A stretch of DNA of 64,000 bases, from UHGV virus genome UHGV-1351772; one strand, 5' to 3'. Source of the DNA: a virus. This document shows, piece by piece, positions 3,681-59,349 of the stretch; position 1 is the first letter of the stretch, and every line of letters begins with the position of its first letter. The position numbers were made by a program, and so were the translations under genes. The notes beneath the pieces were generated by a model that saw nothing but the letters and a program-made list of their open reading frames with translations, made no database searches and was not told the origin of the DNA.

Positions 3681-3756
3681 TGGCGGGGGTGGGAAGTTTC
3701 GAACTCCCAACCTTCGGTTTTGGAGACCGCTGCACCACCAATTGTGCTACACCCCC
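3681..3756 (-). tRNA. tRNA-Trp (anticodon CCA), 76 nt with encoded CCA end
   Basis: Hand-folded cloverleaf. Acceptor stem is GGGGGTG/CACCCCC and D stem is GCAC/GTGC with a GG in the loop. The anticodon loop is CT-CCA-AA. T stem is GGGAG/CTTCC with loop TTCGAAA, and the discriminator is G. There is one G-A mismatch at positions 27-43. From memory, the anticodon and T arms look close to E. coli tRNA-Trp. Confidence 0.9.
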
Positions 3757-3763
3757 TAATACA

Positions 3764-4264
3764 TCAAAACAGCTTAAGTGTTTGCGTTTGACCACCGCTG
3801 TACAGGTCGTAACGTTTCGCCACTTCCACCGCAGTGGGGGCGTCAACGCCAGCACCTAATGCACCCAGGGCATAGTGAGCACCTGAGCCTATCGCATACG
3901 GCGGCTCTACAAACACGTAACTGGCGTATTTGTTGTCTTTGCACTTCGAGGCGTCGATAACGCGTCCGTCTGTCAAAACAGCAAGTACGATAAAATCAAT
4001 CTGCTCGGGATACGTCGTTTCGAATCTAACTCCACCCCGTTCGATACCGCCGAAACGTTCAAGCGTGAGTTCTTGGCGCACGGATTGCAATGCGGCGACA
4101 TCACCTGCCAAACCGATCGCTTTCACGTCTTCACCCAAAAGCTTCCACGACGTACCCTCAGGCGGCGTGTGAATCTTACGGTATTGCGTGGCAGCACTAC
4201 GTTCTTCCACGGTGACTTGACCGTCGCAAGCTAACGTCTTTCCGTCGAAAACAATCGTGGTCAT
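3764..4264 (-). CDS. HslV/proteasome beta-type N-terminal-nucleophile (Thr) peptidase homolog (166 aa)
   Basis: The N-terminus MTTIVFDGKTLACDGQVT parallels E. coli HslV MTTIV..AGDGQAT. Further matches are GLAGD (GFAGG) and AIGSGAHYALGALGAG (AIGSGGPYAQAAA). Confidence 0.65.
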   Translation of the reverse strand: MTTIVFDGKTLACDGQVTVEERSAATQYRKIHTPPEGTSWKLLGEDVKAIGLAGDVAALQSVRQELTLERFGGIERGGVRFETTYPEQIDFIVLAVLTDGRVIDASKCKDNKYASYVFVEPPYAIGSGAHYALGALGAGVDAPTAVEVAKRYDLYSGGQTQTLKLF

Positions 4265-4626
4265 GACAGATTTCCTAACTCATTGCCGACCTCCTGGTCA
4301 GCAGCTACCATCGAATTCGTGCAACGCGTAACATGTTCACGAATCGCTCGAGCCAAACCTTCACGAACGGCTACCAGGAGACACTCTCGATAGCTCGGAT
4401 AATGCGCAATAGGGCTAGGGATGTGTTCCACGCAATAACCATCGTGAACTTCCACCACTACCGTGATGTAAATCTCGACGGGTTGGTAAATCCGCACGCT
4501 CTTGATCAAATCAAGTAACGCTGGCTCCGTGCATCCCCAGTCCTCCGGGGCTTTTAACAGCACTGCCAACTCATCGAGCCTGTACTGAACATCCAATTCC
4601 ACGTTAGTGGTGTTTTTGGAATCCAT
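4261..4626 (-). CDS. hypothetical protein (121 aa; start moved to the ATG with a GGAG RBS)
   Basis: GGAGATTTTAAT-ATG at 4626. There is an ATGA overlap with the HslV-like gene. Confidence 0.6.
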   Translation of the reverse strand: MDSKNTTNVELDVQYRLDELAVLLKAPEDWGCTEPALLDLIKSVRIYQPVEIYITVVVEVHDGYCVEHIPSPIAHYPSYRECLLVAVREGLARAIREHVTRCTNSMVAADQEVGNELGNLS

Positions 4627-5486
4627 ATTAAAATCTCCTGTCGTGGTCTGTGTCACACCAACAGGAAATCCTGTAAAAAAATAATTCAGCTGCGTACCGG
4701 CGTTTCTCAACGGGAGTACGCACCCCTCTCGTCTTTGCGAGCCGTCAAGCTAGAGGACATCACACTGCCAGCGCTACCTGGAGCAGGGTCATTCGACGCA
4801 ACGTCGTAATTCGCATTTTGGCCGCACCTCTGGGAGCGTATCCCACCGTCGGCTGCCCGCAGGTAAGTTCTACGGACCTTTCGCCAACGTCGCTCCCAGA
4901 GGCTGCCACGGTTCACTCGGATTTTCTCATGTGGTCCACGCGTCACTGATAGCGCGGGTTCCCCAACACTCGTAAGTCGGGGAACGGTACCGAGCACCTG
5001 AACTCTGGGGATTCCAAAAATCCCTCGGGGTAAGTACGATTCGCAAATCGATTTTCAAACCCCATAGTAAAACAAACTCCAGTGTTAGGCTGAACGTTTT
5101 GTTTTTCCCAGTACACGGCGAAATAAATTCCATGCACTCGAAAAAACAACCCCCAAACCAACACCCGGTCAGGGGGCTTCGAGCTCTGCTGAATCTTCGC
5201 AGACAGAAATCGTGTTTGAGCTGTGAGCAGTAAACTCCTGAACTCCGAAAAATCTTCGTGGTTGGATTTGTAAATCATCCCACGCAAATCCTCCGAACAT
5301 ACCATAGGGTTTTAACGTTCGAAAAAGGGGAATGGGTTTTACCCCCCTCGGTCAGGTGTTCAGGGTAGACCCCCTACCCGATCCCCCAGGTGGGGATTTT
5401 ACCCTGGTGAATTACCCCGGGTTCGATTTTCGGATTTTCTGGAAAATACCGCTCACCGATCCCTACCCCCTCAGGGGGGTCAGACC

Positions 5487-5496
5487 GAGATCAGAT
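5487..5496 (+). repeat. left copy of the 10-bp direct repeat GAGATCAGAT
   Basis: Identical to 5718..5727. The two copies bracket the CG-block/A+T-core/CG-block unit. Confidence 0.9.
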
Positions 5497-5518
5497 CTCA
5501 TAATAAGGATCGCGCGCG

Positions 5519-5680
5519 TTTTATATATATTTATATATAATATATATTATATATAATAATTATTATATTAATAAATATATTAATATATTTATTTAAATAA
5601 ATAATTAAATAATACCTAAAGGTATTATTATTTTGATCCTAAAGGAATAATATATTTATAAATAAATATATTATACTATA
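5519..5680. repeat. A/T low-complexity core, about 93 percent A+T, with 5519-5614 being 96 nt of pure A/T
   Basis: Direct reading. It contains a perfect 24-nt palindrome at 5570-5593 (AATAAATATATTAATATATTTATT) and a hairpin AATACC-TAAA-GGTATT. It is bounded by CGCGCGCG (5511-5518) and by alternating Pu/Py sequence at 5676-5703 that includes an 18-bp perfect palindrome (5683-5700). Confidence 0.95.
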
Positions 5681-5717
5681 CGCGCGTGCGTACGCACGCG
5701 TATAAGGAAGAGATCTT

Positions 5718-5727
5718 GAGATCAGAT
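5718..5727 (+). repeat. right copy of the 10-bp direct repeat GAGATCAGAT
   Basis: Identical to 5487..5496. Confidence 0.9.
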
Positions 5728-6331
5728 TTTTGAGAGAGTTAAAAATTTAAGATCGATCCGAGAGACTTAGTGTCTCTCGAAGAGTATTAAAAAATTTAAA
5801 AGATCAAAAAACCAAAGCTAGAGAACTACTCAACCTGAATCTTCAGTGTGTGAAGATTCAGTAAGTTGATCAATCCAGCTGATCCGCTAGTACGCGAAGC
5901 GTGAATGTTTTTTTGATCGTCGCGGCGGCCGGTCCGCCGACCCGAGGGTGGGGTGGAACTGGTCGAGGGGAATGCCCCTCAGGCGCTCTCAATCGCGCTG
6001 TAACGAGTTAAACGGGGTTCTGGTACCCAAGTGTACCCCTTGAGGAGATTTTTGCGTCAAAATGCGTTCTAGAGCGTTTTACGATGGGGTGGGTTTTCGA
6101 CCCACTCAGGGATAGGGGTTGGCGTGACAGCTCGAACGACAAAATCGTGGTTTCATGGCGTTGAGTGAAAATAAATTCAAAACCCACAACCAAAAACACC
6201 CTCAAATTCTTCGTAGGAAGCTCTCTGACGAGATAAACGTGGGTAAGGGGTACGAACGTACCGCCTGGAAAGAAAAATGCGTTAGAATCGCTCTCAGCGC
6301 GTTTTTGATTTTTGGGCAAAAAAATAAAACG

Positions 6332-6351
6332 GGGGAGACTTCGGTCTCCCC
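6332..6351 (-). terminator. rho-independent terminator after CDS 6362..7486
   Basis: GGGGAGAC-TTCG-GTCTCCCC is followed on the minus strand by GTTTTATTTTTTT. Confidence 0.85.
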
Positions 6352-6361
6352 AGAATATTTT

Positions 6362-7486
6362 TTACAGAGTCGTCAGTTCTTTTGACGGATAGTACAGTTT
6401 CACATCGACCAAACTGTAACCGGTGGCGTAGAACACCTGATTTCCGACCGAAGCAATAAACCCTTCAGGGTCGATAACGTCAACCGAGAAATCGGAATCG
6501 AATAGCCAGGTTTCTTGTTCCCCTTCCCGTTCGAAAACGGCAGCGTAACGCCCGTATTCTGGGCCTCGGCGGAAACGAAACAGCGTTAATCCTGTCTCAC
6601 GTTCTAAGCCATAAATCACCCCATTTTCTTCGTAGATTTCAGCGCGATTACAGCGTGTAACCGTCAACAACGCAGGCCGTTGTGTCGGGATTGTTTTAAA
6701 CGGTGAAGGCCCATCGTATGTCGTTGAAACCCAATCACCGAGACTGTCTAACGCCAGTGCTCGATACGCGATAGGTGACTTGTAGTTACACAACCTGTTG
6801 CCCTCGGTGTACATCGTGTATTCGATGCGTAACGTAGTACCGATGATGTCGTTCAAACTCAGTTTGTAGTGCGCTAACTGGGCTTGTATACGACAGGACA
6901 GAATTGTACACAGGAAAGTGTGACCCTCTGTAGAACGGCACACAACTCCGTAATCGGTCACTGCCAGTAACGTGGCATCTGTTTTACGGACGGGTTCCAG
7001 GCGAAACACCTCATTTTCAGTTTCTACGAGGAACTGCGAAACCGCTTGGTTTCTGGATTTAGCTTTAATCGTATCGAACACATCACCCGCTTTTACGATT
7101 AACGGTTCTACCACGTTTACCTGAAACGGCAGCGGTTTAGTTGGGTATTGTCCCAACGTTGTAATCGTTACTGAGTTGAGTTCTGGGTCCGATGCGTCAG
7201 GATCACCAGACAACCAATACGTTAGCCATTTCGACAACGTCTGGGGAATGACGCGCGTGGTGTAAAACAGAATTTCGCCATGTAAACCTGCCTCTGCCAA
7301 TTCGCGTGCAAGAAACGAGTTGACCGCGTCGTAGGTACCGTTGCGCAAGATGTCCATACCCCCGACACGAACCAAATCACAAATTACGCCGTGTGGAAGA
7401 ACCCACATTTTGACGTTTTGATTTCGGTCGATGGTACCTTCGCGCAGCATTCTGTGCCAAACGGGTTTACGTAAGTAATTTCTCAT
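6362..7486 (-). CDS. hypothetical protein (374 aa)
   Basis: ATG is preceded by AAAGGAG. No motif recognised. Confidence 0.7.
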   Translation of the reverse strand: MRNYLRKPVWHRMLREGTIDRNQNVKMWVLPHGVICDLVRVGGMDILRNGTYDAVNSFLARELAEAGLHGEILFYTTRVIPQTLSKWLTYWLSGDPDASDPELNSVTITTLGQYPTKPLPFQVNVVEPLIVKAGDVFDTIKAKSRNQAVSQFLVETENEVFRLEPVRKTDATLLAVTDYGVVCRSTEGHTFLCTILSCRIQAQLAHYKLSLNDIIGTTLRIEYTMYTEGNRLCNYKSPIAYRALALDSLGDWVSTTYDGPSPFKTIPTQRPALLTVTRCNRAEIYEENGVIYGLERETGLTLFRFRRGPEYGRYAAVFEREGEQETWLFDSDFSVDVIDPEGFIASVGNQVFYATGYSLVDVKLYYPSKELTTL

Positions 7487-8992: not shown

Positions 8993-9232
8993 TCAATGGG
9001 GCCCTGACATTACCACGAGGTGTATAGAGTAGACCATATTTAGCGCATAGGTAGCTGACGAACCTGCTACCATCAGACCAAATACTGCAAATGCCTGTAC
9101 ATACCGTGTTTTTCGTAGTGGGAAACCTTGCGAACGTCCGTATTGTTTTATCGCTTGGTAACTCTCGCGGATCATTTTATACGTCGCTATCCACGAAAAG
9201 AACACAAGTAAATAGTAAATTGGAGCCATCAC
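8993..9232 (-). CDS. small membrane protein (79 aa, two hydrophobic segments)
   Basis: There is a 4-nt overlap with the terminase stop, which suggests translational coupling. Hydrophobic stretches are APIYYLLVFFSWIA and AFAVFGLMVAGSSATYAL. Confidence 0.55.
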   Translation of the reverse strand: MMAPIYYLLVFFSWIATYKMIRESYQAIKQYGRSQGFPLRKTRYVQAFAVFGLMVAGSSATYALNMVYSIHLVVMSGPH

Positions 9233-11337
9233 TTCATCCTCTGGCGTTGGATAAGCTCTCTTAAGCTTTCCATTGACGCCACGTTTTGTGTATCAGTGTT
9301 AAGTTGAGCAATGAGGGACTGGAGACGGTTACGAGCAGCCATTGCTTGAACCGGGTCTAATAACCCGTTTGTGGTTCGCACAAGACGCTCAATTTCCCCC
9401 ATCAGTTCCTGCTGTCGCGCCTCCTCCTCGAGTTGTAATTCCTCATCCACCCCTTCACGATTTTCGACTAAATTACGATTGCGCATCATCAATCGACTGT
9501 TGTTGATTTCATAATGCCCCAGGTTATTCCCAAGCAGCAATAACCACATCGCAAGTAACCAAGAAATCACGAGGTCGTCATGACCTGAAGCTTTGTGGTC
9601 AATACGACCATTTTTCTCCACGAGGTTAAGTATCTGGTCGATGAGTTCTCCGCAACGGAGTTTATCCGCGGATAAGCGCAACGCTGTGGTGAATACCTCA
9701 CCGTACAGTTTACGACGTTTTTCCTGGTCGGTTGAGAAACCGATATATTTACGGAATTTATTCCAGAACTTCTCAGCGTTACCAATAGGTCCACGGTGAT
9801 ACTCTTTGTAGAGATCGTCCGTACGTGAGTAGTCCTGAGTGATTCTCACAAATAAACGGCGATGTAAGTCCGTGACGCGAGACTGTAACTGCAGGATAAT
9901 TGCATCAGCCACAGACGAGCCAGTAGACCGTCGTTCCAGGATTAGTACCGTGTTAGGATATCGCACCATAAAATCCGCTAAATGAATCGCGAAAGAGATA
10001 ACGTTAGATTCGTTAACGGTTAATTTACCTGCATACTCTGCGGTCACAGAGTTAACAATAGACATGGCGATCGCGTCTCGACCCACCGCCTCAGAGGTAT
10101 CCAACCCGATGACGTGTCGGTCTTTGAGCTTCGTCATCATCTCCTCTTCGGTGTAGTACCAGTCGGTAACGTAGTTTTGTGGTGAAATATCTTTAAACAC
10201 AGCACGCATACGGGAAGCATTCATACGATCTGCATCTTCCGCTGAGAACGGCTTGTTCAGACCACCGGTAGTCCATTCACCCCCGAAGTCACGACGGATC
10301 TGGTCAGGGGTACCTTTGGCGTTCGCAATCATTGCCGCTAACTGCTCATCGCTGGTACCGAGCTGACGGTGGTTGTACTTCACGTAGAACATGATACGTG
10401 GGACTTCTGCCGTGGAGTTAGAACGGATGATATCAATGAGCTGTTTACGGGTTGGAATGTCGATATAGCGCTCATCCCACATAATCCCCGACGTCATCAG
10501 CTCGTACATGTACTTGCCTTCTTCCGTCGCTAAGTCACCAGGGGTTGTTGCGAATACGTTACCGTAAGGAACACCTTCCGCTTCGTTAATACGGCGAGCC
10601 GCTGTACCGGATGCCAGGGCTGCCGGTAGAATGTGGTGTACGTTTTTGGTAAAGGGGCCTTCGTCCGAGAACAGACGACCAGCGGTGAGTCCACGACCGA
10701 TACCGTTAGCAGATTCTGGGTCGTTTTGGCCGATACCCGTAATCAGTTTGTTACCCTGGGCTAAACACGCAAAAGTTTCGCGGTTATCTGGATCATCTGG
10801 ATGTGCTGGCCACAAGTAAGACGGTAGACCGTTACGTAGTTGCTTAAGTTTGTTAATGGTTTCTTCACGCAGTGCCGGTCCTTTTGTGATAAGAATCGTA
10901 CGAGAGTTTTCCAGAAACCGAATTAACCACAATAGTAATCCGCTCATCCCGACGGTTTTACCATGCTGACGGAGGAACTCGACGGCGGCGTCGATGTTGT
11001 TGAAGAAAATCCAATACATCGAAAAGTTACCACGGTCGATACGGAACGGCGACCCGTATTTCATACCGTCCGCAGGTACCCTGACGCACTCTCGAAACCA
11101 GTACCAAGGGTTTTCAGCACACTCGATGGCGATATACGCTTTCTGCTCGTCCGTTAGGTTTTCGTCAAAAGGATCGACCCCTTGCAGTAAAGGGTTATGT
11201 AAGGCGAGATGAATATAGTAGTGCTTTACACCCAGCTTTTTTAGGATATTTGCAAACTTGATAAACGATTTGTTTGTGGTTTTATCGTCAACAATAGCGC
11301 CTGGATAATAACGCCAGTCCGATTCACGTAGTATCAT
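9229..11337 (-). CDS. terminase large subunit (702 aa)
   Basis: Walker A-like LRQHGKT (compare T4 gp17 SRQLGKT) and Walker B-like RLFSDE. The size and a GAGGAG RBS fit. Confidence 0.8.
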   Translation of the reverse strand: MILRESDWRYYPGAIVDDKTTNKSFIKFANILKKLGVKHYYIHLALHNPLLQGVDPFDENLTDEQKAYIAIECAENPWYWFRECVRVPADGMKYGSPFRIDRGNFSMYWIFFNNIDAAVEFLRQHGKTVGMSGLLLWLIRFLENSRTILITKGPALREETINKLKQLRNGLPSYLWPAHPDDPDNRETFACLAQGNKLITGIGQNDPESANGIGRGLTAGRLFSDEGPFTKNVHHILPAALASGTAARRINEAEGVPYGNVFATTPGDLATEEGKYMYELMTSGIMWDERYIDIPTRKQLIDIIRSNSTAEVPRIMFYVKYNHRQLGTSDEQLAAMIANAKGTPDQIRRDFGGEWTTGGLNKPFSAEDADRMNASRMRAVFKDISPQNYVTDWYYTEEEMMTKLKDRHVIGLDTSEAVGRDAIAMSIVNSVTAEYAGKLTVNESNVISFAIHLADFMVRYPNTVLILERRSTGSSVADAIILQLQSRVTDLHRRLFVRITQDYSRTDDLYKEYHRGPIGNAEKFWNKFRKYIGFSTDQEKRRKLYGEVFTTALRLSADKLRCGELIDQILNLVEKNGRIDHKASGHDDLVISWLLAMWLLLLGNNLGHYEINNSRLMMRNRNLVENREGVDEELQLEEEARQQELMGEIERLVRTTNGLLDPVQAMAARNRLQSLIAQLNTDTQNVASMESLRELIQRQRMK

Positions 11338-24008: not shown

Positions 24009-24812
24009 TTACCACTTCCCGTTACCTAAACCCATAACACGCAGGTTAGTTTTCTTATTAGCGATGGCCAGGTACTCCTGCGCTAACGCACGAACTTCAC
24101 CACGACGAGATTCTGTCGCGATAGTAGACGTAGTGTTAGGATTTCGCAGAATGTCCTCCAGCGCCTGGAGGGAGACGCGACGGTCCAGCAGAACGCGTGT
24201 GGATTCTTGAGCCACTTTACTACCGCGTTGAATCGCAGAGTATTTGTTACAAATCTGCAACCCGTCCTCGATAACCCAGTCAAACGTTACCAGGCGATCC
24301 AGGCGACGCGTTTTCACACCACCTACATAACCTTCACGCACGATTGCACGCAGAGAGAAACACACATTCTGGTGTGGGTTTTCGAGCGCTTCTGCTAAGT
24401 ACGGACCACGTTCACGGTTCGGCTTAATCCAGCCCCAGATTTCCATAACCGGCAACCCGTTACAGGTTTGGTCGGTTGGAATCACTTCAACTTCACGAAT
24501 GTGCATACAGACGTTTTTCGTCTCAATCCATTCGTTGCGATCAATCCATTGCGCTTCGGTCATACCAGGTTCTGGTGCTGGGTGATCTTCTTCCCCGAAC
24601 AGATTCCCTGCCTTCACTTTACGCATAAAGATATTCGAGCGTTCGAATACGTGCTTAGACTCGTTATAGGCGTAAAAAATCCCTTCCGAGTTAAAGATAT
24701 TCAAAGCACCCAATAGTACGCGGTAATAACCATCCGCGTCTTTCTCCAGTGTGGCTGGAGCGTTAACACCGGCTAACGCTACGCAGTTGTAACGCAGTGT
24801 TAAATTGTCCAT
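24009..24812 (-). CDS. probable prohead protease, T4 gp21-like (267 aa)
   Basis: LFGEEDHPAPE parallels T4 gp21 ALGELNHPP (catalytic His region). A downstream segment CFSLRAIV lies at the position of the gp21 Ser motif. This is a by-eye match only. Confidence 0.5.
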   Translation of the reverse strand: MDNLTLRYNCVALAGVNAPATLEKDADGYYRVLLGALNIFNSEGIFYAYNESKHVFERSNIFMRKVKAGNLFGEEDHPAPEPGMTEAQWIDRNEWIETKNVCMHIREVEVIPTDQTCNGLPVMEIWGWIKPNRERGPYLAEALENPHQNVCFSLRAIVREGYVGGVKTRRLDRLVTFDWVIEDGLQICNKYSAIQRGSKVAQESTRVLLDRRVSLQALEDILRNPNTTSTIATESRRGEVRALAQEYLAIANKKTNLRVMGLGNGKW

Positions 24813-58422: not shown

Positions 58423-59349
58423 TTAATTGTGGGGTACGTAGCCACGGACAAATGTAGGTGGAATCCAACAAAGTTTTCTCTTTCTTTCACCATTTCTAGG
58501 GCCGACCCAATATCTGCGCCAGTGAGCGCGACGGATGTGGGCAGCCTTAGCATGTTTGATACCCTGCATGGTTTTCAAGTCAGTGTTAAACCCTTTTAGA
58601 TAATTCACTTGTCCTGGCGTGATATCTATCTTAACATCGCGTTCACGAGGTTTAACGTCGTAGCTAATACTACCGTTCTTTTTGATTTCTTTGAACTTAA
58701 TATCATTAAAAGACTCCCTGTAATTGGGCGGGATTAGCGTACACAGAAATATCATCGAAGTAGCGGCTTTGGCCAGAGATAACCATAGCATCTTTTCTTG
58801 TTCGTTCTCCACACCGTCGGCATAGTCGATTTCCACAAGCCCGTTTCCTGCGCTACGAAGCTCTAACGAACAAGTGGCAATTGTGGTAACGCCTTCTGTT
58901 AACCCGTAATCAGTATTTGTAGCAATTATAATAAACCTTCTCTTCCCGTTTTTTCGATAGCCGAGAAAGAAAGTCTCATCCTCTTTACCTACGTCGATTG
59001 CTACAGTCCAAGTAGGTATAAAGTCCAACCATTCTTCAGGGAATTTACTGGGCATCTCAGTCTCGAAAACAAGTTCTCTAAGTGCTTGGTTGGATATTAA
59101 GGAAGCACCACCGTATAGCCATCCAATTGCCAATGTTTGAGCGTGAAGGGAACGGGGATCTTTGAGACCTAACTCAGCGTCGTAAGGTATAAAGGCATTG
59201 GTTAAATGGTTACGATTCTTTTTTATCCATTTCGAGACAGGATTTTCCTTTATTCGGTTTTCTTCCATGACATTTTCAAGATGCTGAGACCCCATTTGTC
59301 TAAGGCAGTCTTTAATACCTTTTACTTTTTTACTTTTGTACAAATACAT
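58423..59349 (-). CDS. hypothetical protein (308 aa), member of a tandem paralog pair
   Basis: C-terminus KAAHIRRAHWRRYWVG...WIPPTFVRGY. AGGAGAATAAACC-ATG. Confidence 0.65.
   Translation of the reverse strand: MYLYKSKKVKGIKDCLRQMGSQHLENVMEENRIKENPVSKWIKKNRNHLTNAFIPYDAELGLKDPRSLHAQTLAIGWLYGGASLISNQALRELVFETEMPSKFPEEWLDFIPTWTVAIDVGKEDETFFLGYRKNGKRRFIIIATNTDYGLTEGVTTIATCSLELRSAGNGLVEIDYADGVENEQEKMLWLSLAKAATSMIFLCTLIPPNYRESFNDIKFKEIKKNGSISYDVKPRERDVKIDITPGQVNYLKGFNTDLKTMQGIKHAKAAHIRRAHWRRYWVGPRNGERKRKLCWIPPTFVRGYVPHN

Follow-up and report, generated by a model that had tools for sequence, protein, structure and literature searches.

The peptidase gene and its phage

We analysed a 64,000-nucleotide stretch of the virus genome UHGV-1351772 (hereafter the window), in which a minus-strand gene at 3764..4264, stop codon included, encodes a proteasome-like threonine peptidase of 166 residues. 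The product fits the PPH family (Fuchs, Alva and Lupas 2021, PMC8665760), which is equivalent to PHROG 1040 and the RefSeq 'peptidase HslV family', with the assignment resting on a match to the published description of the family, whose representative is WP_042125023.1. The reading frame runs through 166 codons without interruption from an ATG at 4264; no start codon comes between it and the upstream stop, and by sequence reading a Shine-Dalgarno-like AGGAAA (4271..4276, minus strand) lies 9 nt ahead of it. The translated product has the N-terminus MTTIVFDGKTLACDGQVT and, further on, AIGSGAHYALGALGAG, such that the N-terminal and GSG segments cited in the original prediction of a stand-alone HslV-like peptidase are both present. 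Public records disagree on the start of this gene, giving products of 148, 166, 179, 191 and 203 residues; the 148-residue version loses the catalytic Thr and the longer versions gain a false propeptide. No second copy of the gene was found in the window.

The window belongs to the genome of a phiKZ-like jumbo phage. Pfam models for PhiKZ_VTX (gp28), phiKZ_gp29PR and DUF7193 matched, and PHROGs identified a large terminase (9229..11337), split RNA polymerase beta subunits, virion proteins, a UvsX-like recombinase and a head-maturation protease (24009..24812; phrog_3014, E 1.4e-104). A megablast search with the locus found no match among 50,697 phage records, which therefore do not include this lineage at the DNA level. 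Two complete bacterial genomes carry versions about 84% identical, each deposited as a 'plasmid': 221,873 bp and circular in E. coli 98232 (NZ_CP173450.1), and 222,441 bp in Enterobacter ludwigii (NZ_CP134650.1). Near-identical peptidases from Salmonella, Shigella and E. coli assemblies form a cluster of 400, and the contigs that encode them are ~220-226 kb long. The circular ~222-kb deposits and the 400-member cluster together suggest a widespread episomal or carrier state of a phiKZ-like phage, for which we infer Salmonella, E. coli and Shigella as hosts.

Proteasome fold, catalytic residues and departures from HslV

Single-sequence searches did not reveal the relationship to HslV, which emerged only with profiles or structure. 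The peptidase alone gave no Pfam match at E<=10, PF00227 included, and nothing relevant in the PDB; it scored 12.8 bits against the NCBIfam HslV equivalog TIGR03692 (cut-off 157.75) and 12.7 bits against NF003964 (cut-off 137), and phmmer with E. coli HslV reached the open reading frame (ORF) at E 3.8. PHROG 1040 matched residues 1-165 at E 1.5e-35, and a profile search recovered 1,849 relatives among 8,000 scored candidates, mostly of 136-170 residues and some with a precomputed PF00227 match, while an exhaustive search of representatives gave 1,112 clusters at E<=1e-3. We aligned 97 family sequences (alignment A2), most of them just 26-36% identical to the window peptidase. The resulting profile matched HslV chains (2.5e-11), BPH (1e-9) and proteasome beta subunits (~1e-6), and aligned with E. 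coli HslV over 140 columns (probability 97.6%, E 3.4e-12). HslV was both the best profile match and the closest solved structure, and the predicted single-chain model was an alpha-beta-beta-alpha sandwich of the proteasome beta/HslV type. The proposed Ntn-hydrolase fold was therefore borne out by profile matches and by the structure model, at both of the points where the original prediction could have failed, and the resemblance to HslV that it had noticed is real and confirmed.

The catalytic set was retained almost without exception across the family. The predicted N-terminal nucleophile, Thr2 (codon 4259..4261, minus strand, as for all codons here), was Thr in 96 of the 96 ungapped members and aligned with HslV Thr1. 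Asp14 (4223..4225) and Lys30 (4175..4177), equivalent to Asp17 and Lys33 of HslV and the proteasome, were each present in 97/97, aligning with HslV GDGQ and K33. Gly51 (4112..4114), corresponding to the oxyanion-hole Gly45 of HslV and Gly47 of the proteasome, was Gly in 95/97. Downstream, the Gly126-Ser127-Gly128 motif (3881..3889) was conserved in 97/97, 96/97 and 97/97 sequences at its three positions, with Ser127 equivalent to HslV Ser124 and proteasome Ser129, and Asp153-Leu-Tyr-Ser156 (3797..3808; D-x-x-S/T-G-G) kept Asp in 97/97 and Ser or Thr in 97/97. Thr3 (96/96) and Gly54 (97/97) were likewise invariant in A2. Column mapping with hhalign placed Thr2, Asp14, Lys30, Gly51 and Ser127 on HslV Thr1, Asp17, Lys33, Gly45 and Ser124, and the C-terminal Y-D-L-Y-S-G-G is presumably the proteasome motif Asp166-x-x-Ser169-Gly-Gly. 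This near-complete conservation argues for an active enzyme and not a decoy.

All but one of the 97 sequences begin directly with Met-Thr-Thr, which indicates that there is no propeptide and supports the 166-residue start call. Methionine aminopeptidase takes off Met ahead of Thr, and since a propeptide is lacking, exposure of the nucleophile would rely on this enzyme. The Thr nucleophile named in the original prediction is thus well founded in its position right behind Met1 and in its conservation, with removal of Met1 itself being the inferred step.

Several elements that HslV uses to engage its ATPase were missing from the phage protein. In the model, helix H1 (residues 56-67) is followed not by H2, as in HslV, but by a low-confidence loop (68-90), and then by H3 (129-137), H4 (142-152) and a last strand (161-164), beyond which nothing follows, such that the C-terminal S12/H5 elements are missing. 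The absence of H2 in the model was matched in the profile alignments by a deletion of ~13-15 residues. In E. coli HslV, the HslU C-terminal tail is accommodated by Phe54, Phe57 and Gln114, plus Ala79/Lys80 in H2 (PMC6429459); the first three are replaced by Gln60, Arg63 and Val117 in the window peptidase, and the H2 positions do not exist.

The prediction that no AAA+ ATPase is co-encoded held in the window and in the complete relative. Scanning ~45 ORFs of the window with Pfam or PHROGs identified no AAA+ ATPase, and the sole ORF with a strict Walker-A motif is 171 residues long. No AAA+ or HslU partner was found in the 221,873 bp of NZ_CP173450.1, where PGAP names just a DnaB family ATPase and the further proteins with a Walker-A motif are one kinase-like, one SMC/Rad50-like and the products of structural ORFs; E. 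coli HslU as a query matched nothing in either sequence. The peptidase is not an HslV orthologue, because it has neither H2 nor the HslU-tail pocket residues and scores far under the HslV cut-offs. The initial HslV/proteasome label accordingly stands for the fold and the Thr nucleophile and falls for HslV orthology, since the PPH family fits instead.

The window peptidase also carries two insertions relative to typical family members. Between Lys30 and the G-x-A-G strand it has 19 residues, compared to 8 in 70/97 family members, and after H1 it has 35 residues, compared to 25 in typical members of 138-141 residues. The first insertion, of ~11 residues between S3 and S4 (residues 32-47, HTPPEGTSWKLLGEDV; 4124..4171, minus strand), contains a conserved Trp and was modelled as a short beta hairpin. 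It is common to SPN3US gp1 (FVCPPDEEWWITGERI) and EL gp15 (HEPGEGEYWSVNGDRI), with the Trp invariant (alignment A3), and absent from most of the family. In connectase, the S3/S4 site holds a mobile lid that gives specificity (PMC8665760), and because the phage hairpin lies at the same insertion site, we hypothesize that it is a candidate substrate gate.

Relatives of the peptidase cluster at 136-148 residues. Among phage records, full-length homologues were found in 59, all of them jumbo phages, at 30-39% identity; carriers include SPN3US and its relatives (gp1), EL-like Pseudomonas phages (gp15) and many Erwinia phages. The orthologues are SPN3US gp1, EL gp15, which adjoins PhuZ, and phiEaH2 gp185, and several of the homologue records already bear the name 'peptidase HslV family'. 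Phage pSal-SNUABM-04 has two such genes, ORF1 and ORF116, and the absence of HslU there has already been remarked upon (PMC7823757); the window peptidase is of the ORF1/gp1 type. A second proteasome-like paralogue of 162 residues is encoded outside the window, at 58451-58939 of NZ_CP173450.1 (E 4.3e-8 to the family profile); it starts with MTT and has D, K, GSG and D..S motifs. Its position corresponds to that of ORF116 in Erwinia and Salmonella phages, pSal-SNUABM-04 among them, and to that of RAY gp116, which is classed as accessory and was reported in the phage nucleus, together with the phage DNA (bioRxiv 10.1101/2023.02.24.529968).

Conserved and variable surroundings of the gene

On the downstream side, a tRNA-Trp(CCA) gene (3681..3756, minus strand; ARAGORN, Rfam 60.6 bits) lies 8 nt from the peptidase. 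The same tRNA adjoins the peptidase in SPN3US, Proteus phage 7 and pEa_SNUABM_29, showing conserved synteny. At the equivalent spot of the close relative, the E. coli 98232 episome, the tRNA is annotated as Ile (L005 3321-3395), and the DNA is unalignable there.

On the upstream side, a small ORF of 121 residues from its ATG (4261..4626, minus strand) has a stop codon that overlaps the peptidase start (ATGA), and the two genes are translationally coupled. This ORF had no match in PHROGs or PADLOC. It is only 42% identical to its E. coli 98232 counterpart, compared to 97% for the peptidase, is swapped for an unrelated ORF in the relative L003, and is absent in SPN3US. NLYLV-family or phrog_5444-like ORFs occupy the position in other relatives. 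The position looks like a hot spot of accessory-gene turnover, and we rejected the upstream ORF as a conserved protein partner on the grounds that it is replaced or highly divergent among close relatives. A conserved neighbouring partner in other phages was rejected as well, given that the neighbours are unrelated.

Further upstream lies a candidate conserved structured non-coding RNA of at least 600 nt (4680..5480, minus strand; 3' domain 4680-5015), within a 1.3-kb region (4710-6008) that has no credible ORF. The stretch 4760-5360 agrees with L003 at ~96% of positions and shows no bias at third codon positions, against 89.6% agreement for the peptidase coding sequence. The minus strand of 4750-5350 folds at -240.5 kcal/mol (shuffles -195.2 +/- 5.6, z = -8.1), compared to z = -2.5 for the plus strand, and the SPN3US counterpart gave z = -5.5. 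The region is collinear with the unannotated positions 1-1186 of SPN3US, and a DNA profile placed ~600-nt homologues directly upstream of PPH in Proteus phage 7, pEa_SNUABM_29, phiEaH2 and Asesino, and upstream of PPH also in seven IMG/VR jumbo contigs. For the 3' domain (~340 nt), RNAalifold predicted 63 pairs, with 97% of cells pairing and 17 pairs showing compensatory double changes, compared to 9.3 +/- 1.5 in shuffles (0/500 reach 17) and 0-7 in slid controls, on an alignment that spans only about four independent lineages and from which the structure itself was derived. Rfam 15 had no match to the region at E<=0.1 and a literature search found nothing on it; the RNA is apparently undescribed, and may belong to the same transcription unit as the peptidase.

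The RNA adjoins PPH at every locus where the full RNA was detected and downstream sequence was at hand. We nonetheless rejected it as an obligate companion of PPH, as in five more divergent jumbo-phage contigs the 3' block is all that remains of the RNA and the 1-4 kb downstream contain no PPH, and EL has PPH and no detectable RNA. The linkage between the two is probably synteny.

Upstream of the RNA is an extremely AT-rich core of 150-200 bp (~5510-5720), with a conserved central palindrome, AATAATACC-TAAA-GGTATTATT, and flanking alternating purine-pyrimidine GC runs and GATC sites. Although proteins of the genera concerned share only ~35% identity, the element is conserved as DNA in SPN3US (56-258), Asesino, Klebsiella phage Miami and Stenotrophomonas phage BUCTxx100; it is a candidate replication origin or (divergent) promoter hub.

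In unrelated phages the peptidase gene adjoins lysis genes (lysozyme), an integrase module or an LPD38 polyvalent protein, and never an ATPase. Such variable surroundings, with small fast-evolving ORFs and tRNAs, are the pattern of an accessory host-interaction gene. No orthologue was found in phiKZ, and the gene is absent from many phiKZ-like phages; because of these absences, the variable region in which it lies and the N-terminal loss in one relative described below, we consider the gene accessory and not essential.

Mode of action and relation to known systems

The best-supported reading, which we hold to be moderately probable, is that the protein acts as an ATPase-independent Thr1 peptidase. 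Host methionine aminopeptidase would remove Met1 and free the Thr, whose amino group and hydroxyl would serve as base and nucleophile, with Lys30 and Asp14 forming the charge relay as in HslV and 20S beta subunits. The S3/S4 hairpin of the jumbo-phage proteins might gate substrate entry, and the substrates would be peptides, unfolded proteins or a specific exposed target, as opposed to folded proteins fed by an ATPase. Action without an unfoldase is proposed because no AAA+ protein was found in the window or the relative and because H2 and the HslU-tail pocket residues are missing. Three modes had been put forward in the original prediction, and acting alone fits best among them, with no ATPase co-encoded and the features for HslU docking absent. 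Degradation of a host defence or regulatory protein is speculation. The peptidase matched none of the PADLOC defence-system models at E<=0.01.

Several points weigh against this reading. To our knowledge, little or no peptidase activity has been demonstrated for the stand-alone homologues BPH and Anbu. The residue equivalences of the peptidase rest on alignments, and the searchable literature on PPH or phage HslV-like proteins holds annotations and the 2021 bioinformatic survey, with no experimental work. In one relative (Logan SRR19505508 contig, 105.9 kb; 6001-6480), codons 1-99 of the peptidase are deleted, Thr2, Asp14 and Lys30 included, and the C-terminal 67 residues are fused in frame to an upstream 'NLYLV'-family ORF; this could be a signal of dispensability, or an assembly artefact or defective genome in what is one assembly only. 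Proteasome subunits need assembly into the ring for activity (PMC8665760), and if the peptidase does not form a ring, the standard mechanism might not apply. A non-canonical contact with HslU or some other ATPase of the host may also exist.

Hijacking of host HslU was another of the proposed modes; here the peptidase would dock on the HslU hexamer, replacing or competing with HslV, to give a hybrid ATP-dependent protease degrading host or phage proteins. HslV is the closest match among both solved structures and profiles, the N-terminal MTTIV is identical to that of E. coli HslV, and the inferred hosts Salmonella, E. coli and Shigella all encode HslU (hslVU in E. coli), all of which would accord with docking. 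However, H2 is absent, and in HslV this helix is part of the apical surface, where Ala79/Lys80 contact the HslU tail (PMC6429459); the pocket residues Phe54, Phe57 and Gln114 are not conserved. Moreover, PPH members occur in many phages and in varied gene contexts, which does not suggest adaptation to one host ATPase. We therefore disfavour this mode and consider it unlikely.

Alternatively, the protein might not be a degradative protease at all but a connectase-like sequence-specific processing enzyme or transpeptidase/ligase that would work as a monomer or small oligomer on one defined phage or host target. The loss of ring elements and the S3/S4 insert are compatible with such an enzyme, to which we assign a low probability. 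We give similarly little credence to a bolder form of the idea, in which a self-sufficient, ATPase-independent threonine enzyme of non-proteasomal quaternary structure would use the Trp hairpin as a gate and cut or ligate a single host or phage target in a sequence-specific manner. In SPN3US-like phages, the peptidase could, as a variant, be linked in function to its two neighbours, the structured RNA and the tRNA gene, for instance by acting on translation or RNA-handling factors, or through RNA-controlled expression.

The presence of a second MTT-starting homologue in NZ_CP173450.1, the same pairing in pSal-SNUABM-04 (PMC7823757) and the localisation of RAY gp116 with phage DNA (bioRxiv 10.1101/2023.02.24.529968) could instead point to a hetero-oligomeric phage 'mini-proteasome' formed with the RAY gp116/ORF116-type paralogue, possibly in the phage nucleus. 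The two genes are, however, ~92 kb apart, and the second paralogue occurs in 16 phage records compared to 59 and was undetected in SPN3US and EL, so that it is not an obligate partner. Each paralogue also retains its own Thr1, unlike the division of labour between alpha and beta subunits, and we regard this assembly as quite improbable.

Phage-encoded inhibitors of host proteases are common, and stand-alone proteasome homologues often have no measurable activity, such that the protein might have no catalytic relevance and instead act as a decoy or inhibitor, either poisoning the HslV rings of the host or titrating one of its factors. Against this very improbable role, Thr2, Asp14, Lys30, Gly51, Ser127, Asp153 and Ser/Thr156 are essentially invariant at ~30% identity, a signature of selection on catalysis. 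A virion-associated or head-maturation protease is the least plausible of the roles weighed here: the gene lies within ~5 kb of terminase and structural genes, but the peptidase had no S80, gp21-type or phiKZ gp175-type match in PHROGs, is missing from many phiKZ-like phages and N-terminally deleted in the Logan contig, and a dedicated gene with the head-protease signature is present at 24009..24812 (of the S80 family in the relative NZ_CP173450.1), in line with the earlier distinction between the two proteases.

The proteasome family is a textbook case of ATPase-dependent compartmentalised proteolysis, and PPH is its only truly viral branch. Retention of the catalytic set without an unfoldase across the family, which spans more than 1,100 sequence clusters, indicates that an enzymatic function is under selection in many phages, and the function of viral proteasome homologues could be a new host-takeover or counter-defence activity. 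A self-sufficient gated enzyme, if true, would give a viral proteasome homologue its first assigned function, and jumbo-phage orthologues are available in phages amenable to genetics (SPN3US, EL and RAY). The gene is less novel than the original prediction assumed: the family, its phage distribution, the missing H2 and the missing ATPase partner have already been published, and the orthologues are annotated in RefSeq. The window contributes one more orthologue, a divergent one, from a jumbo-phage lineage that had not been catalogued, and the kind of system is already known.

Set against known systems, the window peptidase shares MTTIV with HslV (ClpQ) and differs from it in lacking H2 and the HslU-tail pocket residues, in being encoded by a phage without hslU, and in having the proteasome-type D-x-x-S-G-G where E. 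coli HslV reads C-I-Y-T-N-H. Compared to 20S proteasome beta subunits, it has no propeptide, alpha partner, H2 or H5 and is ~40 residues shorter. BPH (PDB 5ovs, 5ovu), at ~185-200 residues, retains H2, has a long acidic pore loop and forms heptameric double rings (PMC8665760), and is bacterial and not phage-borne. Connectase (MJ0548; PDB 6zw0) is a proteasome-family enzyme that works without a ring or ATPase and also has an insertion at S3/S4. PPH members, from tailed phages or prophages of Proteobacteria, are likewise compact, start directly with Met-Thr without a propeptide and have the catalytic Thr, Asp, Lys and Gly, and likewise lack helix H2, the C-terminal S12/H5 and an ATPase partner; the window peptidase differs from them in its length of 166 residues compared to ~140, owing to its two insertions.

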